A DNA stretch of 64,000 nucleotides. Source: Deltaproteobacteria bacterium (GTDB lineage Bacteria > Desulfobacterota > Deferrimicrobia > Deferrimicrobiales > Deferrimicrobiaceae). Every line of letters begins with the position of its first letter. Within the stretch, counting starts at the first letter, position 1. The stretch lies in assembly GCA_016234845.1 (NCBI GenBank), contig JACRNP010000012.1, positions 478-64,477 of the forward strand, written 5' to 3'. The notes beneath the pieces are model-generated. The model ran no database searches. It had not been told where the DNA came from and saw only the letters and a program-made list of their open reading frames with translations. This document shows positions 7,110 to 64,000 of the stretch, one piece after another. The position numbers and the translations under genes were made by a program.

Positions 7110-8176
7110 ACCTTCGGCGGATCCTCTACCCGGAGTCTGCCGGGGCGCTCGCCCTGTACGGAGGGGTGTTCGGGGCGGTCGCCGTCCTGCTCGTCAGGCT
7201 GGGAAACCCGGCGGGAACGGGCCTTTGCGCCTCCTGTTTCCTCGTGAACGTCGCCGGCGCGCTCCACCTCCACGCGAAGGAGTCCCAGAGTTACCTGCGC
7301 CCCGAGATCCTCGGGATCGTCCTCGGCGCATTCTTCGCGGCGTTCGCCGGCGGGGAGTTCCGCGCGAGGGGCGGCGGATCGGCGATCCCCCGGTTCCTCG
7401 GGGGGGCGTTCCTCATCTTCGGGTGCGAAGTGTTCCTCGGTTGCCCGATCAAGGCGCTGCTCCGGACCGCCGGGGGCGGCGCGACGGGCGCCGTCGGTCT
7501 TGCCGGACTCGTGGCGGGGGTGCTTTTCGCCGCGCTCTACGTGCGCGACGGATTCGCTCTCCCGGAAGCGCGGCAATTGCCGGAAGGCGCGGGGCTCGCG
7601 CTGCCGACGGCGGCGTTCCTCCTGCTGCTGGCGGGAGCGACGGGCGCGGAAGCGCTCGCCGCCCCGGGATTCCCCGGGGGGGCGCGCCACGCTCCGTTCG
7701 CGGTTTCCGCGGCGGCAGGCCTGTTTTTCGGCGCGGCGGGGCAACGGTCCCGGTTCTGCGTGACGGGAAGCGTCCGCACGGCGTTCCTCGCCCGCGACTT
7801 CCGCGAAGCCGCCGGGACGCTGTCGTTTCTCCTGGCCGCCCTGCTCCTCGCCGCGTTGTCCGGCTCCTTCACCCCGACGCTTTCGCTGGAGCCGGGTGCG
7901 CACACCGACCTGGTCTGGGCGTTCCTGTCCCTTGCGATGGTGGGATTCGGCGCGATCCTGATCGGCGGGTGCCCGTTCCGGCAGATCGTGCTGGCATCCT
8001 CTGGGGAGATGGACGCCGCGGCGGCGGTCGTCGGCATGCTCCTGGCCGCCGGGCTCTCCGTCCGCCTCGGGATCGGCTCCTCTCCGGCGGGCGTGACCGG
8101 CGCGGGGAAGGCGGCGGTCCTCCTCGGTTTCGCCTTCTTCCTCCTCCTCGCCGCATGGAAGCGGAGGAGGGAGTAA
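7106..8176 (+). CDS. YeeE/YedE family transporter (sulfur/selenium-compound transport family)
   Basis: The GTG at 7106 overlaps the upstream stop. The protein is polytopic and has the internally duplicated Cys-containing loops typical of this family (CASCFLVNVAG, FGCEVFLGCPIKAL, IGGCPFRQIV). The 760-aa ORF in the track (5894..8176) is a false 5' extension running through the previous two genes in another frame. Confidence 0.7.
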   Translation: MNLRRILYPESAGALALYGGVFGAVAVLLVRLGNPAGTGLCASCFLVNVAGALHLHAKESQSYLRPEILGIVLGAFFAAFAGGEFRARGGGSAIPRFLGGAFLIFGCEVFLGCPIKALLRTAGGGATGAVGLAGLVAGVLFAALYVRDGFALPEARQLPEGAGLALPTAAFLLLLAGATGAEALAAPGFPGGARHAPFAVSAAAGLFFGAAGQRSRFCVTGSVRTAFLARDFREAAGTLSFLLAALLLAALSGSFTPTLSLEPGAHTDLVWAFLSLAMVGFGAILIGGCPFRQIVLASSGEMDAAAAVVGMLLAAGLSVRLGIGSSPAGVTGAGKAAVLLGFAFFLLLAAWKRRRE

Positions 8177-9543: not shown

Positions 9544-10548
9544 ATGCTTCCGTACCTCCCCTCGCCCGTCACCGTCAACTGGGGGATCACGGCGCGCTGC
9601 AACTTCGTCTGCAGCCACTGCTTCTCCCGCCTCGACCCGTCCCCGGAGCTGTCGCCCCCGGAGGCGAGGCGCGTGGTGGACATCCTCGCGGAGCGGTCGG
9701 TGATGTTCCTCAACTACGGGACCGGCGAGCCGCTGCTCCGCCCGGACCTGTTCACGCTTACGGAGCACGCGGTGGGGAGGGGCTTGAAGGTCACGATGAA
9801 CAGCAACGGATCGCTGATCGACGCGGCCGCGGCCCGGAGGATCCGCGAGGCGGGGTTCCACTCCGTGGGGATCAGCATCGATTCGGCGTCGGCGTCCGTC
9901 CACGACTCCTTCCGGAGGATGCCCGGCAGCTTCGGCAAGGCCGTGAAGGCGGCGCGCCTGCTGCGGGAAGAGGGGATCGCCCTCACGATCTCGTCGGTCG
10001 TCTGCAAGGTGAACCACGACGATTTTCCGGCGCTGGTCGCGCTGGCGAAGGAGCTCGGGGCGGGGACCATCGACCTGCACAACTTCAAATGCTCCGGCAT
10101 GGGGGGGCTGAACAAGGAGGCGTTGGACCTGTCGCCCGCGGAGTGGAAGGCGTTCTACCAACGCGCGGTGCCCCTCCGCGACGCGGAACACGGCATCGCC
10201 ATCGCCTTCGACGACCCGATCCTCTCGTTGCTGGGCGGGGAAGACAGGGGCCGGCTCGTCGCCGGATCGGTGTGCGGAAAGTTGTCCCTCTACATCAAGC
10301 CGAACGGGGAGATCACCCCGTGCGGTTTCATCCCGGTGACGATCGGCCATATCCTGCGGGACGATTTCGGCGAGGTGTGGCACGGGTCGGAGCTGCTCGC
10401 CCGGCTGCGAACCAAGGCGGCGGCCGGGAAATGCTCGGGATGCGCGAAATTCTCCTCGTGCCTCGGCGGCTGCACCGCCCGCGCGTTCGCCGTGTACGGC
10501 GCCTGGGACGCTCCCGATCCCCATTGCTGGTCCGACGGGAAATCCTGA
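9544..10548 (+). CDS. Radical SAM/SPASM-domain peptide-modifying enzyme (PqqE/anSME/MftC-like)
   Basis: The N-terminal radical SAM cluster is WGITARCNFVCSHCF (CxxxCxxC). The C-terminal SPASM cysteines are SVCGKL...PCGF...CSGCAKFSSCLGGCTARA. Confidence 0.85.
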   Translation: MLPYLPSPVTVNWGITARCNFVCSHCFSRLDPSPELSPPEARRVVDILAERSVMFLNYGTGEPLLRPDLFTLTEHAVGRGLKVTMNSNGSLIDAAAARRIREAGFHSVGISIDSASASVHDSFRRMPGSFGKAVKAARLLREEGIALTISSVVCKVNHDDFPALVALAKELGAGTIDLHNFKCSGMGGLNKEALDLSPAEWKAFYQRAVPLRDAEHGIAIAFDDPILSLLGGEDRGRLVAGSVCGKLSLYIKPNGEITPCGFIPVTIGHILRDDFGEVWHGSELLARLRTKAAAGKCSGCAKFSSCLGGCTARAFAVYGAWDAPDPHCWSDGKS

Positions 10549-10615: not shown

Positions 10616-11521
10616 ATGGAGTTTTCGCTGCCCATACGCATCCGGTGGGACGTCGATTTCCGGGGGCGGTCCGGCCGGGTGAAGCGGATCGCACGCCGCG
10701 TCGCGGAAGCGTCCCCGCTCTTCGTGGAGCTTCACATTTCCGGCAATCGCGGATGGAAGGAGTTTCCCGCGATCGTCGCGGAACTCCAGAAGGCGGGGTG
10801 CCGGGTTTCCGCGCACATCGCCCTTTTTCCGGAAGCCGGGGCCGCTCCCCGCAGGGGGTACCCGGTGGATTTCGTCTGGGACATCGGACGAACCGCGGGA
10901 TTCGTCCCGCGACTTCCGGACGGGGCCACCGCGGTCTCCTTCGTTCCCGACGACGAATCGGCGGAAGAGCTGCCGGAAGTGCTCACGGAGTTCGCGGAGT
11001 GCGGGATCTCCGACCTGCACCTGGTGAACGTGAACGCGGTCCGTTCGATCGCGGAACGCGGGCACGTGCCGGTTCCGGCGATCGGCAAGCTCCGGGAGGC
11101 CGTGGCGGAGACCGCCTCCAGGGGGACGGCGCTCGAAGGAAAACGGCTGGTGGTGCACGACTACTTTCTCTGGAAGGCGCTCTCGGACATGTACCCGGGG
11201 ACGACGGGAGAGCGCGTCGAGTTCACCGGGTGCCAGGCCGGCACCGCGCTGGCCTTCGTGGACTGGGAAGGGAACGTGTACCCGTGCGACTCCCTCCCGA
11301 TCCGGCTCGGCAACATCGAGGAGTCCGCCTTCATCGACGTGTGGGATTCTCCGGTGCGGTCGCGGGTGGTCGATTCCATCCGGGGAACGCCGTGGGCGTG
11401 CGACGGGTGCGGCGAATACCGCGGGTGCTTCGGCGGTTGCCGCGGCATGGGGTACCTGGCGGCGGGTTCCCTCGATGCGCCGGACCCGGCGTGTCCTTCG
11501 GTCCCCCGCACCGATCGTTGA
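10616..11521 (+). CDS. Pseudo-radical-SAM/SPASM protein (SPASM-type C-terminal Cys clusters but no CxxxCxxC SAM cluster)
   Basis: It has a good RBS (GGGAGAGG) before the ATG. The C-terminus FTGCQAGTALAFVDWEGNVYPCDSL...WACDGCGEYRGCFGGCRGMGY resembles a SPASM/twitch domain. The first 200 aa contain a single Cys and no CxxxCxxC. Length and the C-terminal layout parallel the adjacent true rSAM. Confidence 0.65.
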   Translation: MEFSLPIRIRWDVDFRGRSGRVKRIARRVAEASPLFVELHISGNRGWKEFPAIVAELQKAGCRVSAHIALFPEAGAAPRRGYPVDFVWDIGRTAGFVPRLPDGATAVSFVPDDESAEELPEVLTEFAECGISDLHLVNVNAVRSIAERGHVPVPAIGKLREAVAETASRGTALEGKRLVVHDYFLWKALSDMYPGTTGERVEFTGCQAGTALAFVDWEGNVYPCDSLPIRLGNIEESAFIDVWDSPVRSRVVDSIRGTPWACDGCGEYRGCFGGCRGMGYLAAGSLDAPDPACPSVPRTDR

Positions 11522-11554: not shown

Positions 11555-12127
11555 ATGGCCTACGAAGACGACTCGAGGCTTGCGCGGAAGGCCCAGCGGG
11601 GGGACCGCGAGGCGTTCGAGGTCATCCTGACGCGATACGAACGACCGATCTTCTCCTTCATCTACCACTTCTTCCACAACCCTTCCCTCTGCGAAGACCT
11701 GACCCAGGAGACGTTCCTTCGCGCGTGGAGGTTCATCAAATCGTTCCGGCCGAAGGAAAAACTTTCGACCTGGCTCTTCTCCATCGCGAAGAACCTCTGC
11801 ATCGACGAGCTGCGGCGGATGCAGAAGGGGACCACCGTCGACATCGACGCCGTGGATCCCGAAGCGCTCGTCTCGGAGGGCGACCGTGCGGGAGACCCCC
11901 TGGACGCGTCGATCCGGCTGCAGGAGGGGGAGATGCTTCGGAAAGCGATCGCACGGATGCCGGATAAATACCGGGCGTGCATCATCCTGTTCTATTTCAA
12001 CGAGCTCAGCTACGAGGAAATCGCGCAAGTCATGGATATTTCCCTCAGCAACACGAAGATTCTCCTGTTCCGGGGGAAAAAGATGCTCGCCGGCCTGTAC
12101 AGGGAGGACCGGGGCGGAAAAGTGTAA
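11555..12127 (+). CDS. ECF-family RNA polymerase sigma-70 factor
   Basis: Region 2 is RGDREAFEVILTRYERPIFSFIYHFF...DLTQETFLRAWRFIKSF. Region 4 is RMPDKYRACIILFYFNELSYEEIAQVMDISLSNTKILLFRGKKML. Confidence 0.85.
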   Translation: MAYEDDSRLARKAQRGDREAFEVILTRYERPIFSFIYHFFHNPSLCEDLTQETFLRAWRFIKSFRPKEKLSTWLFSIAKNLCIDELRRMQKGTTVDIDAVDPEALVSEGDRAGDPLDASIRLQEGEMLRKAIARMPDKYRACIILFYFNELSYEEIAQVMDISLSNTKILLFRGKKMLAGLYREDRGGKV

Positions 12128-12181
12128 CAATCCGGCCCGGTGGATGTAGTAAGGGATGCACGGTACAAGGGGGAGGGTGTT

Positions 12182-12985
12182 TTGACCGGTTGCCGGAAAT
12201 ACGAAGGGATTCTCGCGAAATACCTGGACGGGGACGCGCTGCTCCAGGACCGGGAGGAGCTCGAACAGCATCTTTCCGTCTGCCCCGACTGCGAGCGGCT
12301 GTACCTTGAGCTGTCCGACGTGGACCGGGCATTGCGGGAGCATCCCGGGAAGCAGGTCGATCTCCCGCCGTACCTTCACGCACGGATCGTGGCGAACCTT
12401 CCGGAGAAGCAGGAATTTCCCCTTTGGGCATCCTGGGGCCGCCGGGCCGCGGCATTCGGCGTGGCCGTCGCCGGGGTCATCGCCCTGGCGATCGTTCTCC
12501 GGCAGGGGGATGGCACGCGGGTCGACCGTGTCGCCTCCGCCCCTTCCCCCGCGCCCGTGGTTCAACCCTCCGCACCGTCCGGTCCGCGGGAGATCCCCGT
12601 CCTTTCTTCCCCCGGTGAGCCTCGGGAACTTCCCGCCCGGAAGCCGGAACCGGATGGCGGCGGCAAGCGGGGAACCGAGGTGGCCTCCGCCCCGAAAGTG
12701 CAGGTGATCAAGGAAGTGAAGATCTTCTTCTACTACCCGCCGGCGCGGACCGTCGCCGTGACGGGCGACTTCAACAATTGGGACGCGAACGGCGTGCCGC
12801 TTGCGGTCGCCGGAAAGCCCGGCCTGTGGGAAACCGAGCTGCGGCTCCCCCCCGGCGCCTACTCGTACAACTTCATCGTTGACGGGGAGCTTCTCGTCCC
12901 CGACCCGAACTCGCCGAACCAGATGCCGGACGGGTACGGCGGGACGAACTCGATCCTGCTGGTGCAGGGGGAGACGGCGATATGA
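12182..12985 (+). CDS. Anti-sigma factor: N-terminal zf-HC2, one TM, C-terminal CBM48/E-set (glycogen-binding-like) beta-sandwich
   Basis: The TTG at 12182 is preceded by AGGGGGAGGG; the ORF track begins at the GTG at 12140. The zinc finger is HLSVCPDCERLY. The TM is AAAFGVAVAGVIALAIVL. The C-terminus KIFFYYPPARTVAVTGDFNNWDANGVPLAVAGKPGLWETELRLPPGAYSYNFIVDGELLVPDPNS matches the AMPK-beta/isoamylase-N (CBM48) pattern. It is directly downstream of the ECF sigma gene. Confidence 0.7.
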   Translation: MTGCRKYEGILAKYLDGDALLQDREELEQHLSVCPDCERLYLELSDVDRALREHPGKQVDLPPYLHARIVANLPEKQEFPLWASWGRRAAAFGVAVAGVIALAIVLRQGDGTRVDRVASAPSPAPVVQPSAPSGPREIPVLSSPGEPRELPARKPEPDGGGKRGTEVASAPKVQVIKEVKIFFYYPPARTVAVTGDFNNWDANGVPLAVAGKPGLWETELRLPPGAYSYNFIVDGELLVPDPNSPNQMPDGYGGTNSILLVQGETAI

Positions 12986-51211: not shown

Positions 51212-51255
51212 GTTACACGGGATTCTCCTTTCGCGCCATCCACCTTGGCGTAGCG

Positions 51256-52389: not shown

Positions 52390-52424
52390 ATACTCGATCC
52401 AATCAATCCCGAAGGAATTATCGA

Positions 52425-52453
52425 TTGTTTTGACCGGTAAAATCACCTATAAT
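52425..52453 (+). promoter_or_regulatory. Candidate sigma70-type promoter for the metalloprotease gene
   Basis: TTGTTT (52425-52430) is followed by a 17-nt spacer and a perfect TATAAT (52448-52453). This sits in the only markedly AT-rich intergenic region (52390..52512). A T8 run at 52462-52469 lies downstream. Confidence 0.35.
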
Positions 52454-52512
52454 TCCAGCGGTTTTTTTTACGTTTCCCGGAGGGCGGGTGCGCTTAGGGG
52501 CTCGATGACGCG

Positions 52513-55500: not shown

Positions 55501-56061
55501 GCAACCGGGTTCTTCCTGGTCCTGACGGAGACGGGCGCGGATACCGGGATCTTCCAGGGGCGGTTCGGGTTCACCGAGGGCGCCACCGACGCGACCGCGT
55601 CCCCCCCGATCATCCAGGTGGCGAGCGGCAACGGCGTGACCGTAACATACGTCGATTTCGACCCTCCGGGGGCGAGGACCGCCGCGGCCACCTGGAGGAG
55701 GGTATTCCCGTTCAGCGACGGCCTGTTCATCGAGGATTTCCGCTGCTTCATCGCCACGGCGGCGTTCGGGTCCCCGATGGCACAGGAGGTCGCCACGTTC
55801 CGCGCATTCCGCGACCGGGTGCTCCTCTCCCTCCCCTTCGGCGACGCCGTGGTGGGGTGGTATTACCGTCTAAGCCCGACAGCGGCCGGATACATCGCGG
55901 AATCCCCCTTCTTGAAATTCGCGGCGAGATTCGTGCTGGTTCCCCTTTCCATGGCCGCCGGGATCGCGGTCGGCGACACCACCGGAACGGTCGTGATCCT
56001 CTTGATCCTAATCGGGATTCCATCGGCGTGGTGGCTGCTCCGCGGCCGTTTCCCGGCGTGA
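52513..56061 (+). CDS. M6-family (InhA-like) zinc metalloprotease with two-component-regulator-propeller repeats and a conserved C-terminal CFIATAAFGSP...hydrophobic tail
   Basis: The N-terminal signal is MTRKAIGLVALAVYFGYGAAPTIALP. The zinc motif is VIVHEMGHLFGLPDLY. Propeller-like repeats include DGLPAGTSTEAAPILSMAPETRSGSMWVGTDRGMFKM. The C-terminus is FRCFIATAAFGSPMAQEVATFRAFRDRVLL... and ends in hydrophobic stretches (LVPLSMAAGIAV, VVILLILIGIPSAWWLL). Confidence 0.8.
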   Translation: MTRKAIGLVALAVYFGYGAAPTIALPPPRPGLVDPLTHRYRTTGAKTPVIPKEVRTYRRAAPLGGKVPLATKSTSSKAAGLPRAISSATDNQVAPLVLLIDFSTRPASASPSISDNAVFASLFFGTGATDLSVANYWREVSYGKFVLARPRDKAPIDPSRPDVAGWLRADAFSAITPADIAGVQVANVRQLLSDAVGFLAGQGFDFRPYVRASDLTFHSVIIVHPGYGQEDAGAAGDPYSHTAGLSVPIPVSISGTTYSIVDYTIVPGLQAPSTGATNPAVDPRIGAGVIVHEMGHLFGLPDLYPTSTAGQVATDNVFSGAGVFDLMAYGMWGNNLLQNPSNPAHLSAWSKAHLGWLVPTLVTSSSPRTLRPVEIFPEVDKVWSNSPADPTQYFLVENREQSSSLGSWLFDQTGMAGALIWQIDEEVINAHLATNDVNSNPAFRGVYVKEADGIPHMGQTIPLTGTPNDRAPYFGQQADLFLTAGQTFNRTTPSTTVNSTPILDNTFTDHPFDFGQQVALVSFSRLVSNAIDYTVSIVGGGTSVPSWKTFNIASTTGRYADPMRSDDILSIAFDSGNNVWLGSKDRGIARFTGTNFDILNTLDGLPAGTSTEAAPILSMAPETRSGSMWVGTDRGMFKMRDSGSGFRVLSSLTESSSGNRKLPAGTGTIRSIVVRGGFLSGTTPIDIKYAATPQGVIRVNDLDTDADPVDPISVILVGDMSAVALDDNGNTTAADDLLWVGDRSGNVYRSRLPGADGGPASADPTFDAQFKRMFTLTGSQVTSLAVDKNGRLWIGTDTLGLRVFDIGETLTPAAANLGDPFDFDNDGDTTETVGPPFLDAGRGLASNNVGSIAFQSTTDTDAVAWVAHLRDSLGNEGGASRFNANATNDNTTVVDERVTVFRPDPAVPLPENQVTGPASTSVVAAAADSAGNVWFGTTTPGAAGASRFGNAGIVSLDRSNYVNISVIATATLQDDGLNTDPGVVDVAIVRVTSASDATGFFLVLTETGADTGIFQGRFGFTEGATDATASPPIIQVASGNGVTVTYVDFDPPGARTAAATWRRVFPFSDGLFIEDFRCFIATAAFGSPMAQEVATFRAFRDRVLLSLPFGDAVVGWYYRLSPTAAGYIAESPFLKFAARFVLVPLSMAAGIAVGDTTGTVVILLILIGIPSAWWLLRGRFPA

Positions 56062-56233
56062 TGGCGGGATCGACAGGGAATATGAGGGAATGCTTCTTGC
56101 TGTTTCACCCCGGAACGGATGCGCCCACCCCGGGGTGCGCGATTTGACGCAGCGGACGAGGGAAATTACCTACAGGCGGGTAACGATCCGGGTGCTGAAG
56201 GGGAGGGGAGGCCGGCTTGCTCCGGGATTGCTG

Positions 56234-58006
56234 ATGGCGGTTTCCTTTTTGATGATGGCGCCGGGCCTCCGGGGGACCGGGTCGGCCGCCGGGCTCGTTT
56301 CGGGGAACTACCAGTTGAACTGGGATCAGACGGTCGACAAGACCGATCAGGAAACCCGGGATGTCCGGAAACTGAGGCAGGCGGTCGAGATCAAGTCGAA
56401 AGGCACCACGTCCCCGGTGATCACGAACGAGGTCACGTTCAAGGTCGAGCAGGAGGTCAACTCCGATTCGCCGGACGTCGTCCGGCTGCTCCCGACCATC
56501 GACCTCGGTTTCAAGGGGAGTTACTGGGAAGCCAAGGCGGGGCTGAAACGGACCGACGAGAATTCCGACGAGCCGGGGAAGAGCCCGAAAACCACCGATG
56601 CGATATTCTTCGAGTGGTTCTACCTCCCGCCGAAGAGCGTTCCGGACCTGAAGGGGAAATACACGCTCGACATCGAAAAGGAATCCGGGACGACCGACAC
56701 GGAGAAGCACGGCGTGACCCTCTCGTCTGTGTACAACCCGAACGGGTGGCTGAACGTCCGGGGCGACTACAACCGGAACCGGCTCCACGACAAGCTCAAG
56801 GCCGACTCCGACACGGAAGACGAGAAGGTGGGAGGTTCGATCGGGTTGCGCCATGTCCTGTACGACAAGATAAAGATGGACACCACCTACACCGTGGATG
56901 TCACACGGGGCGCGACGCTGAAGAGCGACGGCACGGGTTCGGTCGCCGCGAACGACAAGAACGACCAGGTGCACACCTGGAAGAATCTCGTCACGTTCCG
57001 CCCGTTCCGGGACACGTCCATCGACGGATCGTACGATATCGACCTGAAGCAGAACATCGCGAAAGGCGAACATACCCAGACGACCAACTCGAAGGCCACC
57101 GTGGCCCAGAAGATCGGCACGCCGTTCGATCTGCGCGGGGAGTTCCTCCGCGTCGTCACGGAAGCACGGCACACGGTGGACGACAACGAGAAGACCGAGG
57201 AAACCTGGACGGCCGATTTCAAGGCGCGATTCTCGAAGATCGTCGACCTGTCGTTCCGATACCAGAAAAAGGACACGGTCGAGGACCACCTGGACGACAC
57301 GAAAGACACCACGTCCGGAACGCTCAACCGGAACGTGACCTGGACCGGGGACCTGGCTCCGTTCTGGAAGGCGTCCGCCTCGTTCGACATGACCGACACC
57401 CTGGTGAAGGACGTGAAGACCATCGTCGACACGAAATTCAGCATGAAGACGACGTTCGATTTCAAGGCGGTGAGCCTCACGCTCGACCCGTCCTACGACA
57501 TCACCTTCAAGGACGACCTGCTGAAGCCCGAGTACACCGCGATCCGCGATTTCAAGTTCAAGGTGGCGTACAAGGTGTTTTCCACGCGGACCTTCGAGGG
57601 GAAGTTCGACCACACCTACGGCAGGAAGGTCGACACGGGAGCCCGGAACATCCAGCGGACCGACAGCACCAACGGGAACCTGACGTGGAAGGACGGCGTC
57701 CCGGGGTGGACGGCCGCGTTCGACCTGACCCGCCAGGCGACCGATACCAGCCAGGATGACCTGGCCGCGGACATCACGTCCACGTTCGGCTTCAAGGCCG
57801 ATTACAAGTACGAGTGGCTTTCCCTCGGGACGAGCTACAAGTACGACAAGCGGTCCCTGACCGACAACAGCGAGAATTTCGACGCCAAATTGGGATGGGC
57901 GGCGCCGAAATGGGACACGACCCTGATCTACACGTTCAAGAAGACTTTTTCGACCGTGTTGAACGAAGGGTATACCATCAGCCTCACGTTTAAATATAAT
58001 CTCTAA
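56234..58006 (+). CDS. Putative outer-membrane beta-barrel protein
   Basis: The signal peptide is MAVSFLMMAPGLRGTGSAAG. Composition is strongly Asp/Thr/Lys/Tyr-rich and amphipathic throughout, with a C-terminal ...YTISLTFKYNL. This is unlike the cytoplasmic proteins in the window. The ORF-track start at 56090 is a 5' extension. Confidence 0.55.
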   Translation: MAVSFLMMAPGLRGTGSAAGLVSGNYQLNWDQTVDKTDQETRDVRKLRQAVEIKSKGTTSPVITNEVTFKVEQEVNSDSPDVVRLLPTIDLGFKGSYWEAKAGLKRTDENSDEPGKSPKTTDAIFFEWFYLPPKSVPDLKGKYTLDIEKESGTTDTEKHGVTLSSVYNPNGWLNVRGDYNRNRLHDKLKADSDTEDEKVGGSIGLRHVLYDKIKMDTTYTVDVTRGATLKSDGTGSVAANDKNDQVHTWKNLVTFRPFRDTSIDGSYDIDLKQNIAKGEHTQTTNSKATVAQKIGTPFDLRGEFLRVVTEARHTVDDNEKTEETWTADFKARFSKIVDLSFRYQKKDTVEDHLDDTKDTTSGTLNRNVTWTGDLAPFWKASASFDMTDTLVKDVKTIVDTKFSMKTTFDFKAVSLTLDPSYDITFKDDLLKPEYTAIRDFKFKVAYKVFSTRTFEGKFDHTYGRKVDTGARNIQRTDSTNGNLTWKDGVPGWTAAFDLTRQATDTSQDDLAADITSTFGFKADYKYEWLSLGTSYKYDKRSLTDNSENFDAKLGWAAPKWDTTLIYTFKKTFSTVLNEGYTISLTFKYNL

Positions 58007-58033
58007 GGTACAGCGACCGAACGAGGAGGGGAG

Positions 58034-59131
58034 ATGAGCGTCTGGAAAAAAACCGTGTTGTTGATCGCGGCCCTGTCGGTGGCGGCCGGCTGTTCGCGTC
58101 CGGTGCTGATCTCCAGCAGCCAGCCGTCGAAGACCAAGGACCAGTATCTGCGCGTAAAGAAGGTTTCCGTCTTCCCGTTCGAGAACTACTCGGACCTGAA
58201 GGACGCCGACAAGGCGATCGACGCCCTGCTCGTCCCGGCCCTTCGGGACCTGGAAGTGTTCGACGCCGTCGAGGACACCCGCTTCACGCGGGACATCATG
58301 AAGAAGCTCAAGATCACCTCCACCGACATTCTCGACAAGGAGCTGATGAAGAAGTTCGGCGACGAGATGAACGTCCAGGCGATCGTCTTCGGGAAGATCG
58401 TCTCCTTCGGCAAGGGGAAGGAGAAGGACTCGTCGAGCCAGGTCACCATGGACCTGTCCCTGTTCGATCCCTCCACGGGCTCTGTTCTGTGGGCCGGAAA
58501 CGTCAGCGCTTACGGGGGGCTGACGGCGGGGAAGGTGTTCGGGGTCACCGAGGGGATGCTCGACATCGAGGTGGCGCGCGACGCCGTGAAGCGGATCACC
58601 AGGGCGATGGCGTCCGACATCCGCGACGCCCGGAACCGGGAACGGAAGGGGGTCATCGCCGAGATCCGGAAGGAAGAGGAGCAGGAGCGGGCGCGCCTCG
58701 AGAAGCTGAAGGGCGAGACCGGGAAGATCCAGGCGACCATCGACAAGGCGAAGGCGGAGGCCCAGGGGATCCGCGATTCCGCGGCGAAGGACGCGGAGAA
58801 GAGCAAGACCGACCTCGAGCTGCAGAAGGCGGCGTTCGAGGCCGAGAAGACCAGGACGCAGGCCGCGCAGCAGGAGATCGACCAGGAGAAGTTGAAGGTC
58901 GAGGTCGAGCGGAAGAAGGTAGCGGAAGAGCTGAAGCGGATAGAGGACGAGAAGCGGGCGCTTGAAGAGGCCCGCAGGAAAGCCGAGGAGGCGAAGAAGG
59001 CCGCGGAATCCCCCGCCGCGTCCCCGCCTCCGGCGACGCCCCCCGCGCCGGCGGACTCCTCCGGGACTCCCCCGGCTCCGGCCGTGCCGGAAACCGCTCC
59101 CGCGCCGCCGGCGGGAAAAACGGGGCCGTAG
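58034..59131 (+). CDS. Lipoprotein with an N-terminal globular domain, a long coiled coil and a Pro/Ala-rich C-terminus
   Basis: The lipobox is LLIAALSVAAGCS. The coiled coil is ERARLEKLKGETGKIQATIDKAKAEAQ...ELKRIEDEKRALEEARRKAEEAKKAAE. The tail is PAASPPPATPPAPADSSGTPPAPAVPETAPAPPAGKTGP. Confidence 0.65.
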   Translation: MSVWKKTVLLIAALSVAAGCSRPVLISSSQPSKTKDQYLRVKKVSVFPFENYSDLKDADKAIDALLVPALRDLEVFDAVEDTRFTRDIMKKLKITSTDILDKELMKKFGDEMNVQAIVFGKIVSFGKGKEKDSSSQVTMDLSLFDPSTGSVLWAGNVSAYGGLTAGKVFGVTEGMLDIEVARDAVKRITRAMASDIRDARNRERKGVIAEIRKEEEQERARLEKLKGETGKIQATIDKAKAEAQGIRDSAAKDAEKSKTDLELQKAAFEAEKTRTQAAQQEIDQEKLKVEVERKKVAEELKRIEDEKRALEEARRKAEEAKKAAESPAASPPPATPPAPADSSGTPPAPAVPETAPAPPAGKTGP

Positions 59132-59150
59132 GGGACGGAGAAGGGACGAA

Positions 59151-59198
59151 AGGGGTTTCGATCCGGGAACCCCTGGCGGCACGCCCGCCGGGGGTTTT
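59151..59198 (+). terminator. Candidate stem-loops and short T-run after the lipoprotein gene
   Basis: AGGGGTT(59151-59157)...AACCCCT(59168-59174) forms a 7-bp stem. Then GGCGG(59176-80)-cacg-CCGCC(59185-89) is followed by GGGGGTTTT(59190-59198). The T-run is short, so this is weak. Confidence 0.3.
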
Positions 59199-59202
59199 CC
59201 AT

Positions 59203-60303
59203 ATGAAGCGACGAGAGGAGAAAGCCAAGTTGCGAAACGTGCGCGAAACGATGTTCGCGGCGCTTGCGATCGCCGCGATGGTGATCGCCGTCGGCTGTTC
59301 GAAGAAGGATGTCCGGGACGAAGCGGTGGCTTCGGTGAACGGCGAGGACGTAAAGGTCTCGGAGCTGCGGGAGTTCCTCGGGGTCCGCGGCGGAGTCGCA
59401 CCCGCGGGGTCGGTTCCCGTCGAGAAAAAGAAGGAGGCGCTCGACCGGCTGGTGGCGGGTCGCCTGCTCGCCCAGGAGGCCCGGGCGATGGGGCTGGACA
59501 ACACCGAGCAGTTCCGGGGCGCGGCTTCCCGCAACGAGCAGGGGGTCTGGATCAATGCGCTCGTGCGGAAGGAGATCGCCTCGAAGTTGAAGGTCGCCGA
59601 TTCGGACGTCGAGGGCGAGGCGAAGAAGATGCGGAGCGCGGACAACGCCATCACCGAGGCCGACGCGAAGGGGAGGGCGACCCAGGCGGTCGCCGACCGG
59701 CAGCTGCGCAAGATCGAGGAGGAGCTCCTGGAGGCGGCGAGGAAGGAGTTTCCCGCGGCGGTGGACAACGAGGCGATCGGAAGGATCGGCAAGGGCGATG
59801 CGGTCAGGGACGACGCGGTGCTCGCCACCGTGGGAGGGGAGAAGGTCAGCTACGGGGATGTGAAATCCCTCCTCGCCGGGATGTCGCCCGGCACGCACGG
59901 CAGCCAGGACCTGTCGAGGAACCCGAACGCCGTGGCGAAGGTGCTCGAACGCGAGGCGATGGGGAAATCGCTGTACGCCTACGCGAAGAAACAGGGACTC
60001 GACGGGACGGAGTGGCTGAAATCGGTCCGGTCCGACATGGAGCGGGGCGTCCTCATCAACCTGCTGGCCGAAAGGATCGCGAAGGATGTCTCCGTGACCG
60101 ACGAGGAGATCCGCGCGGCGTACGCCGAGCACGCCCAGATGCTGGTCCGGGACGGAAAGAAGATCCCCCTCGCGCAGGTGAAGGATCAGCTCCGCGGGTT
60201 CCTCGAGAACGCCAAGCGGAGGAAGGTCCTCGAGGAGCGGGTCGAAGCGCTGCGGAAGAAGGCGAAGATCACGGTCAACGAGGCGACGCTGCCGAAGGTG
60301 TGA
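59203..60303 (+). CDS. SurA-N/PpiD-like periplasmic chaperone lipoprotein
   Basis: The lipobox is AIAAMVIAVGCS; an alternative start is the ATG at 59251. SurA_N-like segments are VASVNGEDVKVSELREFL... and ...KKIPLAQVKDQLRGFLENAKRRKVLEERVEALRKKAKITVN. Confidence 0.6.
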   Translation: MKRREEKAKLRNVRETMFAALAIAAMVIAVGCSKKDVRDEAVASVNGEDVKVSELREFLGVRGGVAPAGSVPVEKKKEALDRLVAGRLLAQEARAMGLDNTEQFRGAASRNEQGVWINALVRKEIASKLKVADSDVEGEAKKMRSADNAITEADAKGRATQAVADRQLRKIEEELLEAARKEFPAAVDNEAIGRIGKGDAVRDDAVLATVGGEKVSYGDVKSLLAGMSPGTHGSQDLSRNPNAVAKVLEREAMGKSLYAYAKKQGLDGTEWLKSVRSDMERGVLINLLAERIAKDVSVTDEEIRAAYAEHAQMLVRDGKKIPLAQVKDQLRGFLENAKRRKVLEERVEALRKKAKITVNEATLPKV

Positions 60304-60340
60304 CGCCCGGGTGAATTCCATCGCCGTGAAGGACGTACCA

Positions 60341-61300
60341 ATGGAACGGAGGGCGGGCATGGGGTACCGGGTTCTGGCCGCCGTTGCGGTGTGTGCCGTG
60401 GTCGCCGGCCCGATCCGGGCGCTGGCGGGGGTATCGTTCGATTTCCTCGACGCGACGGGCGGGTTCGGAATCGGCCGGGAAAGCTTCGACCGCCCCGTGG
60501 ACGTCGTCCAGGACCGCGAGGAGAACCTGTACGTCGTGGATCGGGGGAACAACCGGATCCAGGTGCTGGACCGGAGGGGGAGGTTCGTCCGCGAATGGGG
60601 CGGGCGCGGTTTTTCCCCGGGATCGTTCGACGCTCCGTCGGCGATCGCGATCGACCGCGCGGCCGGCGTCCTGTTCGTCGTCGACACGGGGAACCACCGC
60701 ATCCAGAAGTTCGACCTGAACGGGAAGGCGCTCCTGTCGTTCGGCCGGCTGGGTTCCGGAACCGGGGATTTCAATAAACCGCTGGACGTCGCCCTGGACC
60801 GGAAGGGGAACGTCTACGTGGCGGATTCCGGCAATAACCGGATCCAGAAGTTCGACTCCTCCGGGAAGTTCCTGGTCGAATGGGGGAGGTTCGCGAGGAG
60901 GAAGGGCGCGGAGCTCAACAACCCGGTTTCCCTCGCGTATTCGGAGGAGGGATTCGGGTTCGTCTACGTCCTCAACTCCCCGGAATGCAGGGTCCAGAAG
61001 TACGACATCGAGGGAAACCTCTCCAAGGAATGGCCGATGCACCGGAAGGGCGAAGGGGCCCTGTGCGGCCCTTCCCGCATCCGGATTGAACCCCGAAAAT
61101 ATACGGTGTATATTGCGGACACGGAGAACGACCGGGTGATCCTGTTCGACCGGGACGGCGAGCCGCTCGGGGACCTGAAAACGGGGAAGGCCGGATTCCG
61201 CAAACCGGCGGGGGTATCCGTGGACGTGACCTTCGACGAGAACGTGGTCGTTGCCGACACCGGGAACCATCTCATCCAGAAATTCAGGAGGACAAGGTGA
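60341..61300 (+). CDS. Secreted NHL-repeat beta-propeller protein
   Basis: AAGGA lies before the ATG at 60341; the ORF-track start is the GTG at 60311. The signal is MERRAGMGYRVLAAVAVCAVVAGPIRALAG. NHL repeats include LYVVDRGNNRIQVLD, LFVVDTGNHRIQKFD, VYVADSGNNRIQKFD and VYIADTENDRVILFD. Confidence 0.75.
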   Translation: MERRAGMGYRVLAAVAVCAVVAGPIRALAGVSFDFLDATGGFGIGRESFDRPVDVVQDREENLYVVDRGNNRIQVLDRRGRFVREWGGRGFSPGSFDAPSAIAIDRAAGVLFVVDTGNHRIQKFDLNGKALLSFGRLGSGTGDFNKPLDVALDRKGNVYVADSGNNRIQKFDSSGKFLVEWGRFARRKGAELNNPVSLAYSEEGFGFVYVLNSPECRVQKYDIEGNLSKEWPMHRKGEGALCGPSRIRIEPRKYTVYIADTENDRVILFDRDGEPLGDLKTGKAGFRKPAGVSVDVTFDENVVVADTGNHLIQKFRRTR

Positions 61301-61887
61301 CGATGCGCCTCTTTCCGAAGCAGAAATGCCGGGCGGGGATTCTCGCCGCGCTGGTGCTCCTGGCCGCTTCCGCCGGATTCGCGGAAGAGAGGAACATGAC
61401 CCCCCTTTCGGGCGGGGTGCCGATGATCGAGGGGATCAAGATGCTCGAGGCCGGAGCGGTCGCCCCCGATTTCACGGTGAAGGACACGGACGGGACCTCT
61501 TTCCGGTTCGCCGAGGAAGCGGCGAAGAAGCCGGTCCTCATCGTCTTCTGGTCCATCTTCTGCGAGCCGTGCCGGTTCGAGATGCCGGTGATACAGAAAC
61601 TCTTTGAAAAGCACAGGGATGCGATCTCCGTGGCGGCGGTCGCCCTCGACGGCGAGCCGCTGAAGAACAGCATCGTGGGGTTCGTGAAGCAGGAAGGGTA
61701 CACGTTCAAGGTCCTGGTGGACGAGCTCGACGAGAGGGAGATGTTCAAGGTCGCCGACCCGTTCGGCGTCGCCGGGACCCCGACCGTGTTCCTCGTCGAG
61801 AAGGGGGGGAAGATCGCCCTCGCCAAGGTCGGCCGTTTCAAGGAAGAGGATCTCGAGAAGGCCATCCAGTCCGTCCTGAAGAAATGA
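61297..61887 (+). CDS. TlpA/ResA-like periplasmic thiol-disulfide oxidoreductase (thioredoxin fold, CEPC active site)
   Basis: AGGAGG lies before the GTG at 61297; an ATG alternative is at 61303. The signal is MRLFPKQKCRAGILAALVLLAASAGFA. The redoxin motif is PVLIVFWSIFCEPCRFEMPVIQKL. Confidence 0.8.
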   Translation: MTMRLFPKQKCRAGILAALVLLAASAGFAEERNMTPLSGGVPMIEGIKMLEAGAVAPDFTVKDTDGTSFRFAEEAAKKPVLIVFWSIFCEPCRFEMPVIQKLFEKHRDAISVAAVALDGEPLKNSIVGFVKQEGYTFKVLVDELDEREMFKVADPFGVAGTPTVFLVEKGGKIALAKVGRFKEEDLEKAIQSVLKK

Positions 61888-61894
61888 GATCGGA

Positions 61895-63436
61895 ATGCGG
61901 GTGATCCGGACCGCCTGCCTCGCCCTGCTTCTCCTCCTGGTCGCGGCGCCCGCCTTCGGAGTCGCCGTGGGCGAGCGGGCCGTGCCCTTCGAAGGGGAAA
62001 CGCTCGGGGGGGAGCGATTCCGGCTGGCGGATTCGATCGGCAAGAAGGTGATCCTCCTCAAGTTCGGATCGATCTACTGCTCCACCTGCGTTTCCTCGCT
62101 CGAGGACGTCTCCCGCATACAGAGACGGTTCAAGGCGTCCGACCTGCAGATCGTCGGCGTGAACCTCGACGTGTACGGGCTGTCGCGGGTCCGGCGCTTC
62201 TACCGCGGATACGCGAACCTGATCAAGTACCCGATGGTCATCGACGAAAAGCTCGCCGCCTCCCGGCCGTACGACATCCAGTCGATCCCCGCGCACGTGA
62301 TCATCGACCGGCAGGGGGTGGTCCGGTTCGTTTCCACCGGCGCTTCCGGCGACGACCTGAAAATCCTCGAAGAGGCGCTCGGCAAGGTCATCCGGGGAGA
62401 GTCCGGGATCGAAAAACTGGCGAAGGAGCTCCCCCTTCAGGTATTCCTTCCGATCAACTTCACGAAGACGCTGCAGGATTCGATGTACATCGTCGGGAAG
62501 GCGAAGCGGGGAGCGCGGGTCACGCTGGCGCTGAACGGCGGCTCCCGGCAGTCCGTGACCGTGATGCGGGACCTCTTCTACATCCGGACCCCCCTGTCGC
62601 TCGGCTCCAACTATCTCGAAGTGTCGATCGTCGATCCGGTCGGCGGAAGGGTGAACCAGGGAGTCGTGATCTTCCGCGAGCCGAAGATGGGGTCGGGGAT
62701 CGAGTCTCCCTTCCCGGAATACCGCTTCCACAACGAGAAGAACGAGGCGCCTTGCCGGGCATGCCACAACATGAACCCTCCGGAGCAGGGCGCGCAGGGG
62801 TTCGCGACGGCCACCCAGTTCTGCCTCGGGTGCCACAAGGAGCTGACCGGGCAGCGGCAGGTCCACGGTCCGATCACCATCGGCGGGTGCGCCCCGTGCC
62901 ACCAGTTCAACTCCCGCCCGAACCGGTACGAGGTGATCGCGCAGGGGCAGGATCTCTGCTTCAAGTGCCACGAGGAGAAGCGGAAGGACCTCATCAAGTC
63001 GTTCCTTCACGGCCCGATGTCCGCGGGGCTCTGCACGATCTGCCACAGCCCCCACGCCTCGTCGGAAAAGTACCAGCTTCGCCGGTTCATGGGAGACCTC
63101 TGCGTGATGTGCCACGAGGCGATGAAGGCGGTATCGTTCCGGAAGGTGGTCCACAAACCGGTCAACGACGGGGCGTGCGGCGGTTGCCACGAATCGCACT
63201 CCTCCGACCGGAACGACAACTTCGTGAAGAAGCCGGGGAACGCCCTGTGTTTTTCTTGTCACCCGAACATTACCAAGTCGACGCACAATCATCCGTTCGG
63301 AGTCCCTCCGAAGAAGGAGCGGGTGATCAAGCTGGACAAGGAGGGGAACCTGATTTGCGTCTCCTGCCACGAGCCGCACGCGGGCGACGAGAGCAAACTT
63401 CTGGTCAAGGGCGGATGCGCGAAGTGCCACTCCTGA
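61895..63436 (+). CDS. Fusion of a thioredoxin-like (CSTC) domain to a roughly decaheme c-type cytochrome
   Basis: The signal is MRVIRTACLALLLLLVAAPAFG. The N-terminal redoxin domain is VILLKFGSIYCSTCVSSLEDV...IVGVNLD...IPAHVIIDRQGVVRFV. The C-terminal half has CRACH, CLGCH, CAPCH, CFKCH, CTICH, CVMCH, CGGCH, CFSCH, CVSCH and CAKCH. Confidence 0.85.
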   Translation: MRVIRTACLALLLLLVAAPAFGVAVGERAVPFEGETLGGERFRLADSIGKKVILLKFGSIYCSTCVSSLEDVSRIQRRFKASDLQIVGVNLDVYGLSRVRRFYRGYANLIKYPMVIDEKLAASRPYDIQSIPAHVIIDRQGVVRFVSTGASGDDLKILEEALGKVIRGESGIEKLAKELPLQVFLPINFTKTLQDSMYIVGKAKRGARVTLALNGGSRQSVTVMRDLFYIRTPLSLGSNYLEVSIVDPVGGRVNQGVVIFREPKMGSGIESPFPEYRFHNEKNEAPCRACHNMNPPEQGAQGFATATQFCLGCHKELTGQRQVHGPITIGGCAPCHQFNSRPNRYEVIAQGQDLCFKCHEEKRKDLIKSFLHGPMSAGLCTICHSPHASSEKYQLRRFMGDLCVMCHEAMKAVSFRKVVHKPVNDGACGGCHESHSSDRNDNFVKKPGNALCFSCHPNITKSTHNHPFGVPPKKERVIKLDKEGNLICVSCHEPHAGDESKLLVKGGCAKCHS

Positions 63437-63470
63437 CGGACGGAGCCGCAGGCCGGGAAAGGTGCGGGCG

Positions 63471-64000
63471 TTGACGAAGATCCACGGGACCCTGGGCTTC
63501 AAGCTGGTGATGGCCTCCATGGTCCTGGCCCTCGTCACCATCGGGCTGGGCGGCGTCATCGTGTACAAGGTCAGCGAGGACGCCATCAAGGTCGACGCGC
63601 AGGCCACGGTCAAGGAACTGGCCGCCGACCTCGACAACATGAACGTCGTCGGCGACGGCGGGGGGCAGGACCTGCTGGACCGCCTCACGCGGCTCAAGGT
63701 CCAGAAATTCGGGGCCGCCTGGGTGATGGACCGGAACGGATTCCTCATCGCCCACATGGATCCACGGTACCGGGGCGACGCCGAGGCGCGCCAGTTCATC
63801 GGCGACTACGTGGTGAACCTGAACGTCGGCGAGCAGCCCATCCAGCAGCTGGGAGAGAAGAACGTCGCTCACAAGCTGAAGCTTCTGGACCTCATGGACA
63901 AGTTCACGGCGGGGTTCGGCAGCTACACGTTCCGCGGGGAGACCGAGCTGATCGCCTTCAAGGTCCTGAAGGAGAAAGGGTGGTTCGTCGCGGTCGACCA
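63471..64000 (+). CDS. Periplasmic sensor-domain protein (Cache-like N-terminus of a chemoreceptor or kinase), 3'-truncated by the window edge
   Basis: The TTG at 63471 (or the GTG at 63462) is preceded by GGGAAAGG. The TM is LGFKLVMASMVLALVTIGLGGVIV, followed by a soluble region NGFLIAHMDPRYRGDAEARQFIGDYVVNLNVGEQP... The frame is open to the end of the window. Confidence 0.4.
   Translation, partial: MTKIHGTLGFKLVMASMVLALVTIGLGGVIVYKVSEDAIKVDAQATVKELAADLDNMNVVGDGGGQDLLDRLTRLKVQKFGAAWVMDRNGFLIAHMDPRYRGDAEARQFIGDYVVNLNVGEQPIQQLGEKNVAHKLKLLDLMDKFTAGFGSYTFRGETELIAFKVLKEKGWFVAVD

Follow-up and report, generated by a model that had tools for sequence, protein, structure and literature searches.

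The 64,000-nucleotide (nt) stretch of DNA analysed here, hereafter the window (contig JACRNP010000012.1 of assembly GCA_016234845.1, from a deltaproteobacterium of the Deferrimicrobiaceae), encodes near its 3' end a secreted protein in which a thioredoxin domain is covalently joined to a decahaem cytochrome. From comparative sequence evidence we firmly conclude that the fusion is genuine and strongly conserved: this protein, the product of open reading frame 2 (ORF2), joins a redox-competent TlpA/ResA-class domain, a beta-sandwich and an MtrA-like decahaem. Its gene lies 7 nt downstream of that of a free-standing thioredoxin, ORF1, both on the forward strand at the coordinates of a preliminary description, which had reported a CEPC redoxin followed by a protein combining a CSTC redoxin domain with 10 CXXCH motifs; the ORF coordinates, Pfam matches and motif counts bear this out. 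The two genes and the parts of the fusion, with lengths in amino acids (aa), are:

61297 to 61887, forward strand: ORF1, a ResA-like periplasmic thioredoxin of 196 aa with a signal peptide and a CEPC motif at aa 89-92 (nt 61561-61572).
61895 to 63436, forward strand: ORF2, the fusion protein of 513 aa, composed of a signal peptide, a thioredoxin domain, a beta-sandwich and a decahaem domain.
61967 to 62380, forward strand: TlpA/ResA-class thioredoxin domain of ORF2 (aa 25-162), delimited with Pfam, AlphaFold2 (AF2) and Foldseek.
62078 to 62089, forward strand: active site of ORF2, FGSIYC62STC65 (CSTC at aa 62-65; the cis-proline is P132).
62420 to 62680, forward strand: middle domain of ORF2, an all-beta immunoglobulin (Ig)-like sandwich (aa 176-262) with the motifs NFTKT, LNGGS and LSLGSNY(I/L)E.
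62729 to 63433, forward strand: MtrA/DmsE-like decahaem domain of ORF2 (aa 279-513), with 10 CXXCH motifs and nine invariant distal histidines.

The reading frame of ORF2 is unbroken, with neither a stop codon nor a frameshift, and the GC content at third codon positions is 0.89 for ORF1 and ORF2 alike, the neighbouring genes being similar. Domain annotation, proposed in the preliminary description, gave matches to both redoxin and multihaem hidden Markov models (HMMs) within this one protein: Pfam Redoxin (PF08534) and AhpC-TSA (PF00578) matched at 51.4 and 57.6 bits (62.4 and 60.4 bits for ORF1; gathering cut-offs of approximately 26), and Paired_CXXCH_1 matched five stretches far above chance (expectation value, E, of 7e-39). 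Exactly 10 CXXCH motifs are present, all within aa 287-512, and the Pfam scan returned no family match of any kind for aa 170-280. The single open frame, together with 113 full-length homologues of like length and domain order, excludes the split into two genes that had been put forward as a refutation of the fusion, and on the same grounds rules out an assembly or frameshift artefact.

These homologues come from a search of 5.8 billion proteins, which returned 313 relatives; motif counts were taken from the full-length members of the 120 best. Full length (480-596 aa) was reached by 113 of these 120, all with both domain classes and at 37-95% identity to ORF2, so that the database search for the same architecture that had been suggested at the outset was amply productive. 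The motif FGSIY-C(S/T/A)(T/S)C is kept in 112 of the 113 (CSTC in 74, CSSC in 35, CTSC in two and CATC in one), exactly ten CXXCH motifs occur in 109, and 106 carry no further cysteine after the signal peptide. In an alignment of 23 sequences the invariant positions comprise C62, C65, P132, all 10 CXXCH motifs, nine more histidines and many residues of the middle region. Retention of the CxxC and of the ten haem motifs, together with these invariant columns, argues that the fusion is real and under selection. In just one full-length homologue, P0062 (514 aa, on a 1.7-kb contig), serine takes the place of the first cysteine of the active site (FGSIYSSTC), which may reflect either an error in sequencing or a natural monothiol variant.

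Clustered at 90% identity, the proteins of this architecture fall into more than 110 clusters, and a scan with one genome per species placed the gene in 43 metagenome-assembled genomes (MAGs), i.e. in at least 43 species-level lineages, labelled Deltaproteobacteria, Deferrisomatales, Thermodesulfobacteriota, Rokubacteria and others, with no cultured organism among the 43. The preliminary description had called the fusion unusual. This holds for the literature searched, which left out most subscription journals and contained no description of a thioredoxin::multihaem fusion, and does not hold in the sense of a one-off, given the spread of the family. A literature search for a precedent in Sco-cytochrome c fusions gave no usable passage. 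Homologues of ORF2 are named in public databases just 'redoxin domain-containing protein' or 'cytochrome c3 family protein'.

TlpA/ResA-type thioredoxins normally serve to reduce the cysteines of apocytochromes, and both thioredoxin units of the locus belong to this structural class. For ORF1, the start is more likely the ATG at 61303 (giving 194 aa, as in the orthologue of locus L001) than the GTG at 61297. Its active-site motif, FWSIFCEPCRFEMP, has a glutamate at +3 after the second cysteine and is accompanied by a 'GTPT' cis-proline loop, and its best match in the PDB is ResA (4nmu, E 1e-18); CEPC, the glutamate and the best PDB and NCBIfam matches, all to ResA, agree with its earlier description as a TlpA-like thioredoxin. 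Among orthologues of ORF1, CEPC is found in 43 of 47 loci and the glutamate at CxxC+3, a ResA signature, in 46 of 47. This signature is missing from the fused domain, where the motif reads CSTCVSS, with no proline inside the CxxC, no glutamate at +3 and no tryptophan. The thioredoxin fold of the ORF2 N-terminus, the lack of which had been named as a second ground for refutation, is upheld: its model (predicted local distance difference test score, pLDDT, of 85-90) superposed in Foldseek on ResA, DsbE-like and Geobacter thioredoxin structures with template modelling (TM) scores of 0.85-0.91, and a profile search gave ResA as the best PDB sequence match of this domain also. Against the ResA subfamily model (NCBIfam NF002854), ORF1 scored 84.4 bits and ORF2 56.4, both under the cut-off of 170; by this measure the two are ResA-like and not ResA equivalogues.

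Because the two units are only 21% identical, they are old paralogues. The fused domain as a recent tandem copy of ORF1 is ruled out by the same figure and by the separate orthologue that each unit has in the unfused system of locus L051 (see below). A search with the thioredoxin domain alone returned almost solely fragments of the fusion at contig ends, plus two free-standing relatives. No member of the CcdA/DsbD or DsbB/VKOR families is encoded in the eight annotated contexts, the rest of these genomes not having been inspected.

The middle domain was modelled by AF2, on an alignment of homologues, as a sandwich of eight strands (pLDDT approximately 65-77), and its invariant columns in the 23-sequence alignment include P186, K191, T192, G201, L213, N214, L236 and N239. 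For the haem half, the PDB sequence ranked first in a profile search was that of MtrA (6r2q_A, from the MtrCAB complex; E 2.8e-19), and the DmsE-family decahaem model TIGR03508 of NCBIfam matched at 121.1 bits (E 5e-35), under its cut-off of 192.2. By these matches the haem domain is homologous to the DmsE/MtrA/PioA decahaem family, yet lies outside the curated family. A census of the alignment counted nine invariant histidines outside the haem motifs for 10 haems, no conserved methionine, and C62 and C65 as the only other conserved cysteines; with nine such histidines and no methionine, one of the ten haems is, on the alignment, without a conserved histidine or methionine as distal ligand. 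Read by eye, the unfused decahaems of loci L051 and L052 likewise have nine such histidines.

The fused halves can also be found apart. When the beta-sandwich and decahaem part alone was searched against 1.84 billion representatives, fused proteins matched from approximately residue 190 of approximately 530, and unfused proteins of 352-400 aa that consist of these two domains were recovered at 32-43% identity. Redoxin genes lie close by in all four unfused contexts examined (L049, L050, L051 and L052); the partnership of thioredoxin and decahaem is thus older than the fusion and specific to this decahaem family. In L051, three redoxin genes stand in a row directly 5' of the decahaem gene: a 163-aa redoxin (FWSIYCSTC...NMDAYGVPRVHKF) is the reciprocal best match of the fused domain (39% identity), and a 249-aa redoxin (FWSIFCESCREEMP) is that of ORF1 (41-44%). 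With both thioredoxin orthologues standing as separate adjacent genes in L051, the fusion is, on this reciprocal-match evidence, a true Rosetta stone. Following these genes, the same locus encodes a GGDEF protein, NHL propellers, more cytochromes and a 745-aa protein with no Pfam match. Its orthologue of ORF1 (7120..7869) is extended at the C-terminus, and the extension closes with a LysM-like motif (YPGQLLQIPQD) by which the protein may be anchored to peptidoglycan.

The gene order of L052 is redoxin (CNIC), octahaem, decahaem and GAF-GGDEF. In L049 (1043..2167) and L050 (6915..7973), the unfused decahaems are adjoined by redoxin-TPR proteins of 352-374 aa that have lost both active-site cysteines (FWATWSERS and FARPDQQNS, respectively) and resemble non-catalytic, perhaps chaperone-like redoxin folds; a rhodanese gene lies just 5' of the one in L050. 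A free-standing relative of the fused domain, P0393 (loci L053/L054; FWSIYCVAC...NLDSFGTKRVVRF), is clustered with a further two redoxins as well as with NosD-like beta-helix proteins and multihaem cytochromes, and in L054 a ResB-like gene and a gene for a Fer4 membrane protein lie just upstream.

ORF1 and ORF2 are near the 3' end of a same-strand run of genes with very short gaps, the other members of which are:

52513 to 56061, forward strand: large secreted protein of 1182 aa with Peptidase_M6-like and Reg_prop motifs (Pfam), which opens the run.
56234 to 58006, forward strand: outer-membrane beta-barrel of approximately 30 strands (AF2, Foldseek).
58034 to 59131, forward strand: lipoprotein (lipobox VAAGC) with a weak LpoB/GNA1162-like domain (sub-threshold in Pfam), a coiled coil and a Pro/Ala-rich tail.
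59203 to 60303, forward strand: SurA-N-like lipoprotein (lipobox AVGC) of the chaperone/peptidyl-prolyl isomerase (PPIase) type, with Pfam SurA_N_3 and SurA_N_2 over cut-off.
60311 to 61300, forward strand: periplasmic six-bladed NHL-repeat beta-propeller (Pfam NHL, E 2e-34).
63462 to 64000, forward strand: start of a membrane sensor gene (transmembrane helix and periplasmic sensor domain), cut by the end of the window.

Much of this run forms a conserved envelope cassette, in which the ResA-like ORF1 is an obligate partner of the fusion. In tblastn comparisons of the window proteins with 48 loci, the gene for the ORF1 orthologue (43-93% identity) was directly flanked by those of the NHL propeller (5') and of the fusion (3') in essentially every locus with enough flanking sequence, the NHL stop codon overlapping the GTG start of ORF1 (GTGA) in the window. 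The barrel and the 58034..59131 lipoprotein were found in most of the 48 loci, with synteny between barrel and fusion in at least 24 and with the lipoprotein gene 5' of the NHL gene in most. Annotated relatives at 95%, 46%, 42% and 40% identity share one core, ordered as a protein of approximately 600 aa without Pfam match, a lipoprotein of 250-365 aa, an optional SurA-like protein, the NHL propeller, a redoxin of approximately 190 aa and the fusion, followed by a GAF-GGDEF or PAS-kinase gene. The SurA-like gene is limited to the closer relatives plus L005 and L031, and the 1182-aa protein was kept in the closer relatives only (34-82% identity), its position elsewhere being taken by other large surface proteins or giant cytochromes (in L004 and L005, a 2110-aa cytochrome, Big_1 or beta-helix proteins). 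A scan of positions 51000-64000 for promoters and terminators gave counts at chance level and no operon boundaries.

The mechanically called ORF of the barrel starts at 56090 (638 aa) and is probably too long: its homologues have 560-635 aa, and the NCBI entry P0121, which comprises 583 aa and matches it at 100% identity, puts the true start at about 56255. Its AF2 model (pLDDT 88.8) has 30 long beta-strands and in Foldseek matched MtrB (6r2q_B) best in the PDB (E 2.5e-9, query TM score, TMq, of 0.40), with TonB-dependent receptors, LptD and ushers next in rank. Among the homologues, some have a match to Pfam Porin_4 or are labelled 'predicted porin' by JGI. The NHL protein matched the propellers of TRIM71, Thin and PknD (E 1e-49 to 1e-17) ahead of NHLRC2/SOQ1 (1e-13 to 1e-12). 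A specific kinship of the NHL and ORF1 pair to NHLRC2/SOQ1 is not supported, TRIM71/Thin/PknD and ResA being the better matches, and the likeness is one of architecture only. In 30 of the 42 loci with room for it, the gene directly 3' of that for the decahaem is a same-strand GGDEF gene. The orthologue of the truncated sensor in L001 (11568..13307; 91% identical over the part inside the window) is a 579-aa protein with GAF and GGDEF domains; its GGDEF signature is degenerate (RCYGATF), so that it is probably not an active cyclase, and its periplasmic part has no cysteine.

Upstream of this run the window encodes four giant cytochromes and one further protein:

13587 to 16889, forward strand: multihaem cytochrome, 1100 aa, 18 CXXCH motifs.
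17615 to 24943, forward strand: multihaem cytochrome, 2442 aa, 43 CXXCH motifs.
26228 to 30505, forward strand: multihaem cytochrome, 1425 aa, 17 CXXCH motifs.
30502 to 35829, forward strand: multihaem cytochrome, 1775 aa, 22 CXXCH motifs.
35899 to 38205: Big_1/invasin-like protein, following the giant cytochromes.

The cassette of L004 is directly preceded by genes for the 2110-aa cytochrome and for a Big_1 protein. Two SPASM-domain proteins, the first of them of the radical-SAM/SPASM type, are encoded side by side in the window (9544..10548 and 10616..11521, forward strand), and between these genes and the giant cytochromes, at 11555..12985 on the forward strand, there are, by eye, look-alikes of an extracytoplasmic function (ECF) sigma factor and a zinc-finger anti-sigma factor.

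Among characterized systems, the decahaem and barrel most resemble those of MtrA-MtrB (6R2Q) and DmsE/PioA/MtoA, which likewise combine ten CXXCH motifs with a large co-encoded barrel. The MtrAB barrel differs in having 26 strands (approximately 30 here) and in being encoded by an adjacent gene (four genes away here). ORF2 itself departs from MtrA in approximately 260 additional N-terminal residues (the thioredoxin domain and the beta-sandwich), and from MtrA and DmsE in scoring under the curated family cut-off and in having only nine conserved distal histidines; unlike MtrCAB, the conserved core of the cassette contains no MtrC-type partner. Thioredoxins of the ResA/CcsX and CcmG/TlpA types share with both units the fold, the extracytoplasmic site, the CxxC and the cis-proline, and ORF1 has the CEPC..E of ResA. 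These proteins are not attached to a cytochrome, whereas the ORF2 domain is covalently so and has the motif FGSIYC(S/T)(T/S)C; unlike the system II settings of ResA/CcsX, the cassette here contains no ccdA, resB or resC. In DsbD/DipZ relays, a series of thioredoxin-type modules operates outside the cytoplasm, as is proposed here for ORF1 and ORF2, and the C-terminal region of DipZ is also thioredoxin-like with a beta-sandwich, Foldseek aligning approximately 305 columns with ORF2. In ORF2, however, the non-thiol partner is a decahaem, and a membrane module of the CcdA type is neither fused nor adjacent.

Two further systems bear a likeness to the cassette or to ORF2. The nearest gene cluster in the literature searched, the Uet cluster of Candidatus Tenderia electrophaga and Gallionella, encodes a PPIase (UetB), a barrel (UetC), NHL proteins (UetH/I) and an undecahaem with paired CXXCH motifs (UetJ), and has CcsA/CcsB and an NrfG-like TPR gene adjacent (bioRxiv 10.1101/2022.05.06.490989). 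Its parts list is that of the cassette (PPIase/chaperone, barrel, NHL, paired-CXXCH cytochrome), a likeness by parts; unlike the cassette, the Uet cluster has no thioredoxin genes or fusion, and contains triheme cytochromes and a cupredoxin, with CcsAB adjacent. In the ExtHIJKL porin-cytochrome cluster of Geobacter, MccSep/ExtKL is a multihaem cytochrome that cleaves disulfide bonds with electrons supplied through its haems, with catalysis by selenocysteine and a haem-ligating cysteine (bioRxiv 10.1101/2025.11.18.688581). It resembles ORF2 in being multihaem, in belonging to a porin-cytochrome cluster and in having an Ig-like domain, but has five haems, no thioredoxin fold and no detectable homology to ORF2 beyond the haem motifs. 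As a homologue of ORF2 it was rejected on fold and haem count, and the analogy is functional only. Meheust et al. sort the carriers of electrons outside the cytosol into three classes (cytochromes, thioredoxin-like and flavinylated proteins), and describe hybrid thioredoxin-like/flavin systems for extracytosolic electron transfer, which likewise combine thiol with non-thiol carriers (bioRxiv 10.1101/2021.01.07.425746).

Our preferred reading, which we put forward tentatively and at somewhat less than an even chance, is that the cassette encodes an MtrAB-like conduit with a thiol-disulfide relay at its periplasmic end that trades electrons with the haem chain. Both this coupling and the maturation module discussed below, the two leading readings, had been offered in the preliminary description. 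ORF2 would be the periplasm-facing decahaem subunit of a module comprising the approximately 30-strand barrel, the two lipoproteins, the NHL propeller and the decahaem, with the decahaem inserted in the barrel; the MtrA-like haem domain and the modelled barrel support, short of proof, such a porin-cytochrome module. The beta-sandwich and the thioredoxin domain sit at the N-terminus, the periplasm-facing end in MtrA. ORF1 and the fused domain would form the relay, and the fused domain, as its last member, would exchange electrons with the first haems of the wire, so that periplasmic thiol chemistry, which moves two electrons at a time, would be tied to a haem chain that carries them singly across the outer membrane. 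Outer-sphere electron transfer between haem and disulfide being chemically unfavourable, a special haem would probably be needed for the conversion, the candidate being the haem without a conserved distal histidine (compare the cysteine-ligated haems of TsdA and MccSep). Electrons might pass from dithiol to haem or, in the opposite direction, from haem to disulfide; in the latter case the system would be a disulfide reductase, periplasmic or extracellular, that is fed by the cytochrome. This coupling is suggested by the fusion and its Rosetta-stone logic, by the odd haem, and by the decahaem being the sole other redox-active component of the cassette, to which the lack of CcdA/DsbD and DsbB/VKOR in the annotated contexts is added. 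Precedents are the disulfide cleavage by MccSep/ExtKL, the hybrid thioredoxin-like/flavin systems and the analogous Uet clusters.

Several points weigh against it. The barrel's TMq to MtrB is just 0.40, other large barrels match it too, and no Pfam or NCBIfam model, that of MtrB_PioB included, matches it in its own right. The AF2 model of the haem domain, which is cofactor-free and has a pLDDT below 50, offers no structural support for a CxxC near a haem. One-electron haems and a two-electron disulfide are mismatched; to our knowledge, all known converters use flavin adenine dinucleotide, a quinone, an iron-sulphur cluster or a cysteine-ligated haem, and a cysteine-ligated haem in ORF2, drawn by analogy, is a conjecture. 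ORF1 resembles a classical apocytochrome reductase, the thioredoxins could be fed by a housekeeping CcdA encoded at another place in the genome, and the cytochrome-maturation or ResB-like genes of related clusters and the cysteine-less redoxin-TPR partners fit better with assembly. We consider unlikely the more specific proposal of a new one-/two-electron transducer, in which the haem lacking a distal histidine would be ligated by, or react with, a cysteine of the CxxC, as in FTR and TsdA, linking the outer-membrane chain with disulfides in either direction as a haem-powered substitute for CcdA/DsbD or DsbB.

The main alternative, in which the cassette's thioredoxins make up a dedicated maturation and assembly module, appears to us somewhat less likely than the preferred reading; it is free of the conversion problem. 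ORF1 and the fused domain would then form a reducing relay of the CcmG-to-CcmH kind, fed by a housekeeping CcdA, that keeps the 20 haem-binding cysteines of the decahaem, and perhaps those of neighbouring cytochromes, reduced until haem attachment and threading through the barrel; the N-terminal domain would work in cis as the chain leaves the Sec machinery, and the haems would take no part in thiol chemistry. The ResA hallmarks of ORF1 (CEPC, glutamate at +3, cis-proline), for which ResA is also the best PDB and NCBIfam match, accord with this, as do the other biogenesis-type factors of the cassette (the SurA-like lipoprotein and the NHL propeller), the CcsA/CcsB and NrfG-like TPR protein embedded in the analogous Uet cluster, the redoxin-TPR proteins beside unfused relatives, which recall apocytochrome chaperones, and the ResB-like gene beside the free-standing relative of the fused domain. 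The fused domain, however, has no ResA signature (neither a proline in the CxxC nor a glutamate at +3), and a maturation factor permanently fused to its own substrate, with the CxxC intact in 112 of 113 homologues, would be unusual. Two to three thioredoxins per decahaem exceed the normal need, and the 17- to 43-haem cytochromes of the window, 25-45 kb away, are without such a domain. In several lineages there is no other cytochrome within 10 kb of the cassette, and its standing alone ties the thioredoxins to this one decahaem.

Transmission of a signal in place of respiratory current strikes us as distinctly unlikely. The wire would report the extracellular redox state across the outer membrane, the fused domain would turn it into a disulfide switch that ORF1 resets, and the state would be read by the co-encoded GAF/GGDEF membrane sensor or, in some lineages, by a histidine kinase with a sigma-54 regulator. 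The GGDEF gene that follows the decahaem gene in 30 of 42 loci does so also in distant relatives of 26-35% identity and in the unfused L051 and L052, its place in L004 is taken by a PAS histidine kinase together with a sigma-54 regulator, and several lineages have neither an extracellular cytochrome nor a quinol dehydrogenase nearby, which is odd for a respiratory conduit. But the cysteine-free periplasmic part of the L001 sensor leaves no direct thiol-disulfide hand-off, the GGDEF motif of this close orthologue is degenerate, adjacent regulators often merely control their operon, and such a gate has no precedent. A thiol peroxidase or antioxidant guard, in which an AhpC/TSA-type domain would detoxify peroxides with electrons from the haems, is highly improbable. 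Pfam AhpC-TSA matches both ORFs and there are weak PDB matches to Bcp and 2-Cys peroxiredoxins, but peroxiredoxins match at E-values of only 1e-5 and ResA/TlpA-type structures at 1e-18 to 1e-15, and the MAGs come from probable anaerobes. A role as peroxiredoxin was rejected on account of the CxxC in the thioredoxin position (KFGSIYCSTC in ORF2, VFWSIFCEPC in ORF1) and the absence of the PxxxT/SxxC motif from both.

The family is uncharacterised, spans several phyla and is confined to uncultured lineages, and whichever reading holds it offers an expressible target of 513 aa and a cassette of six to eight genes. If ORF1 and the fused domain are a maturation device, they show by what means organisms with very large multihaem proteins make sure that haem is attached. 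Outside the bacterial cytoplasm, cytochromes and thioredoxin-like proteins count among the main classes of electron carrier and are normally treated as separate circuits; here they are covalently joined. Were the two domains of ORF2 to exchange electrons, they would provide a new answer to the problem of one-/two-electron conversion, and extracellular electron transfer could drive thiol chemistry, or the reverse. The chemistry coupled in this way might include reduction of disulfides or polysulfides, thiol shuttles, and the supply of reducing power to the periplasm without NADPH, and a true transducer might be used for extracellular disulfide or polysulfide respiration, for the regeneration of thiol shuttles, or for sensing of the extracellular redox state that feeds the GGDEF sensor.

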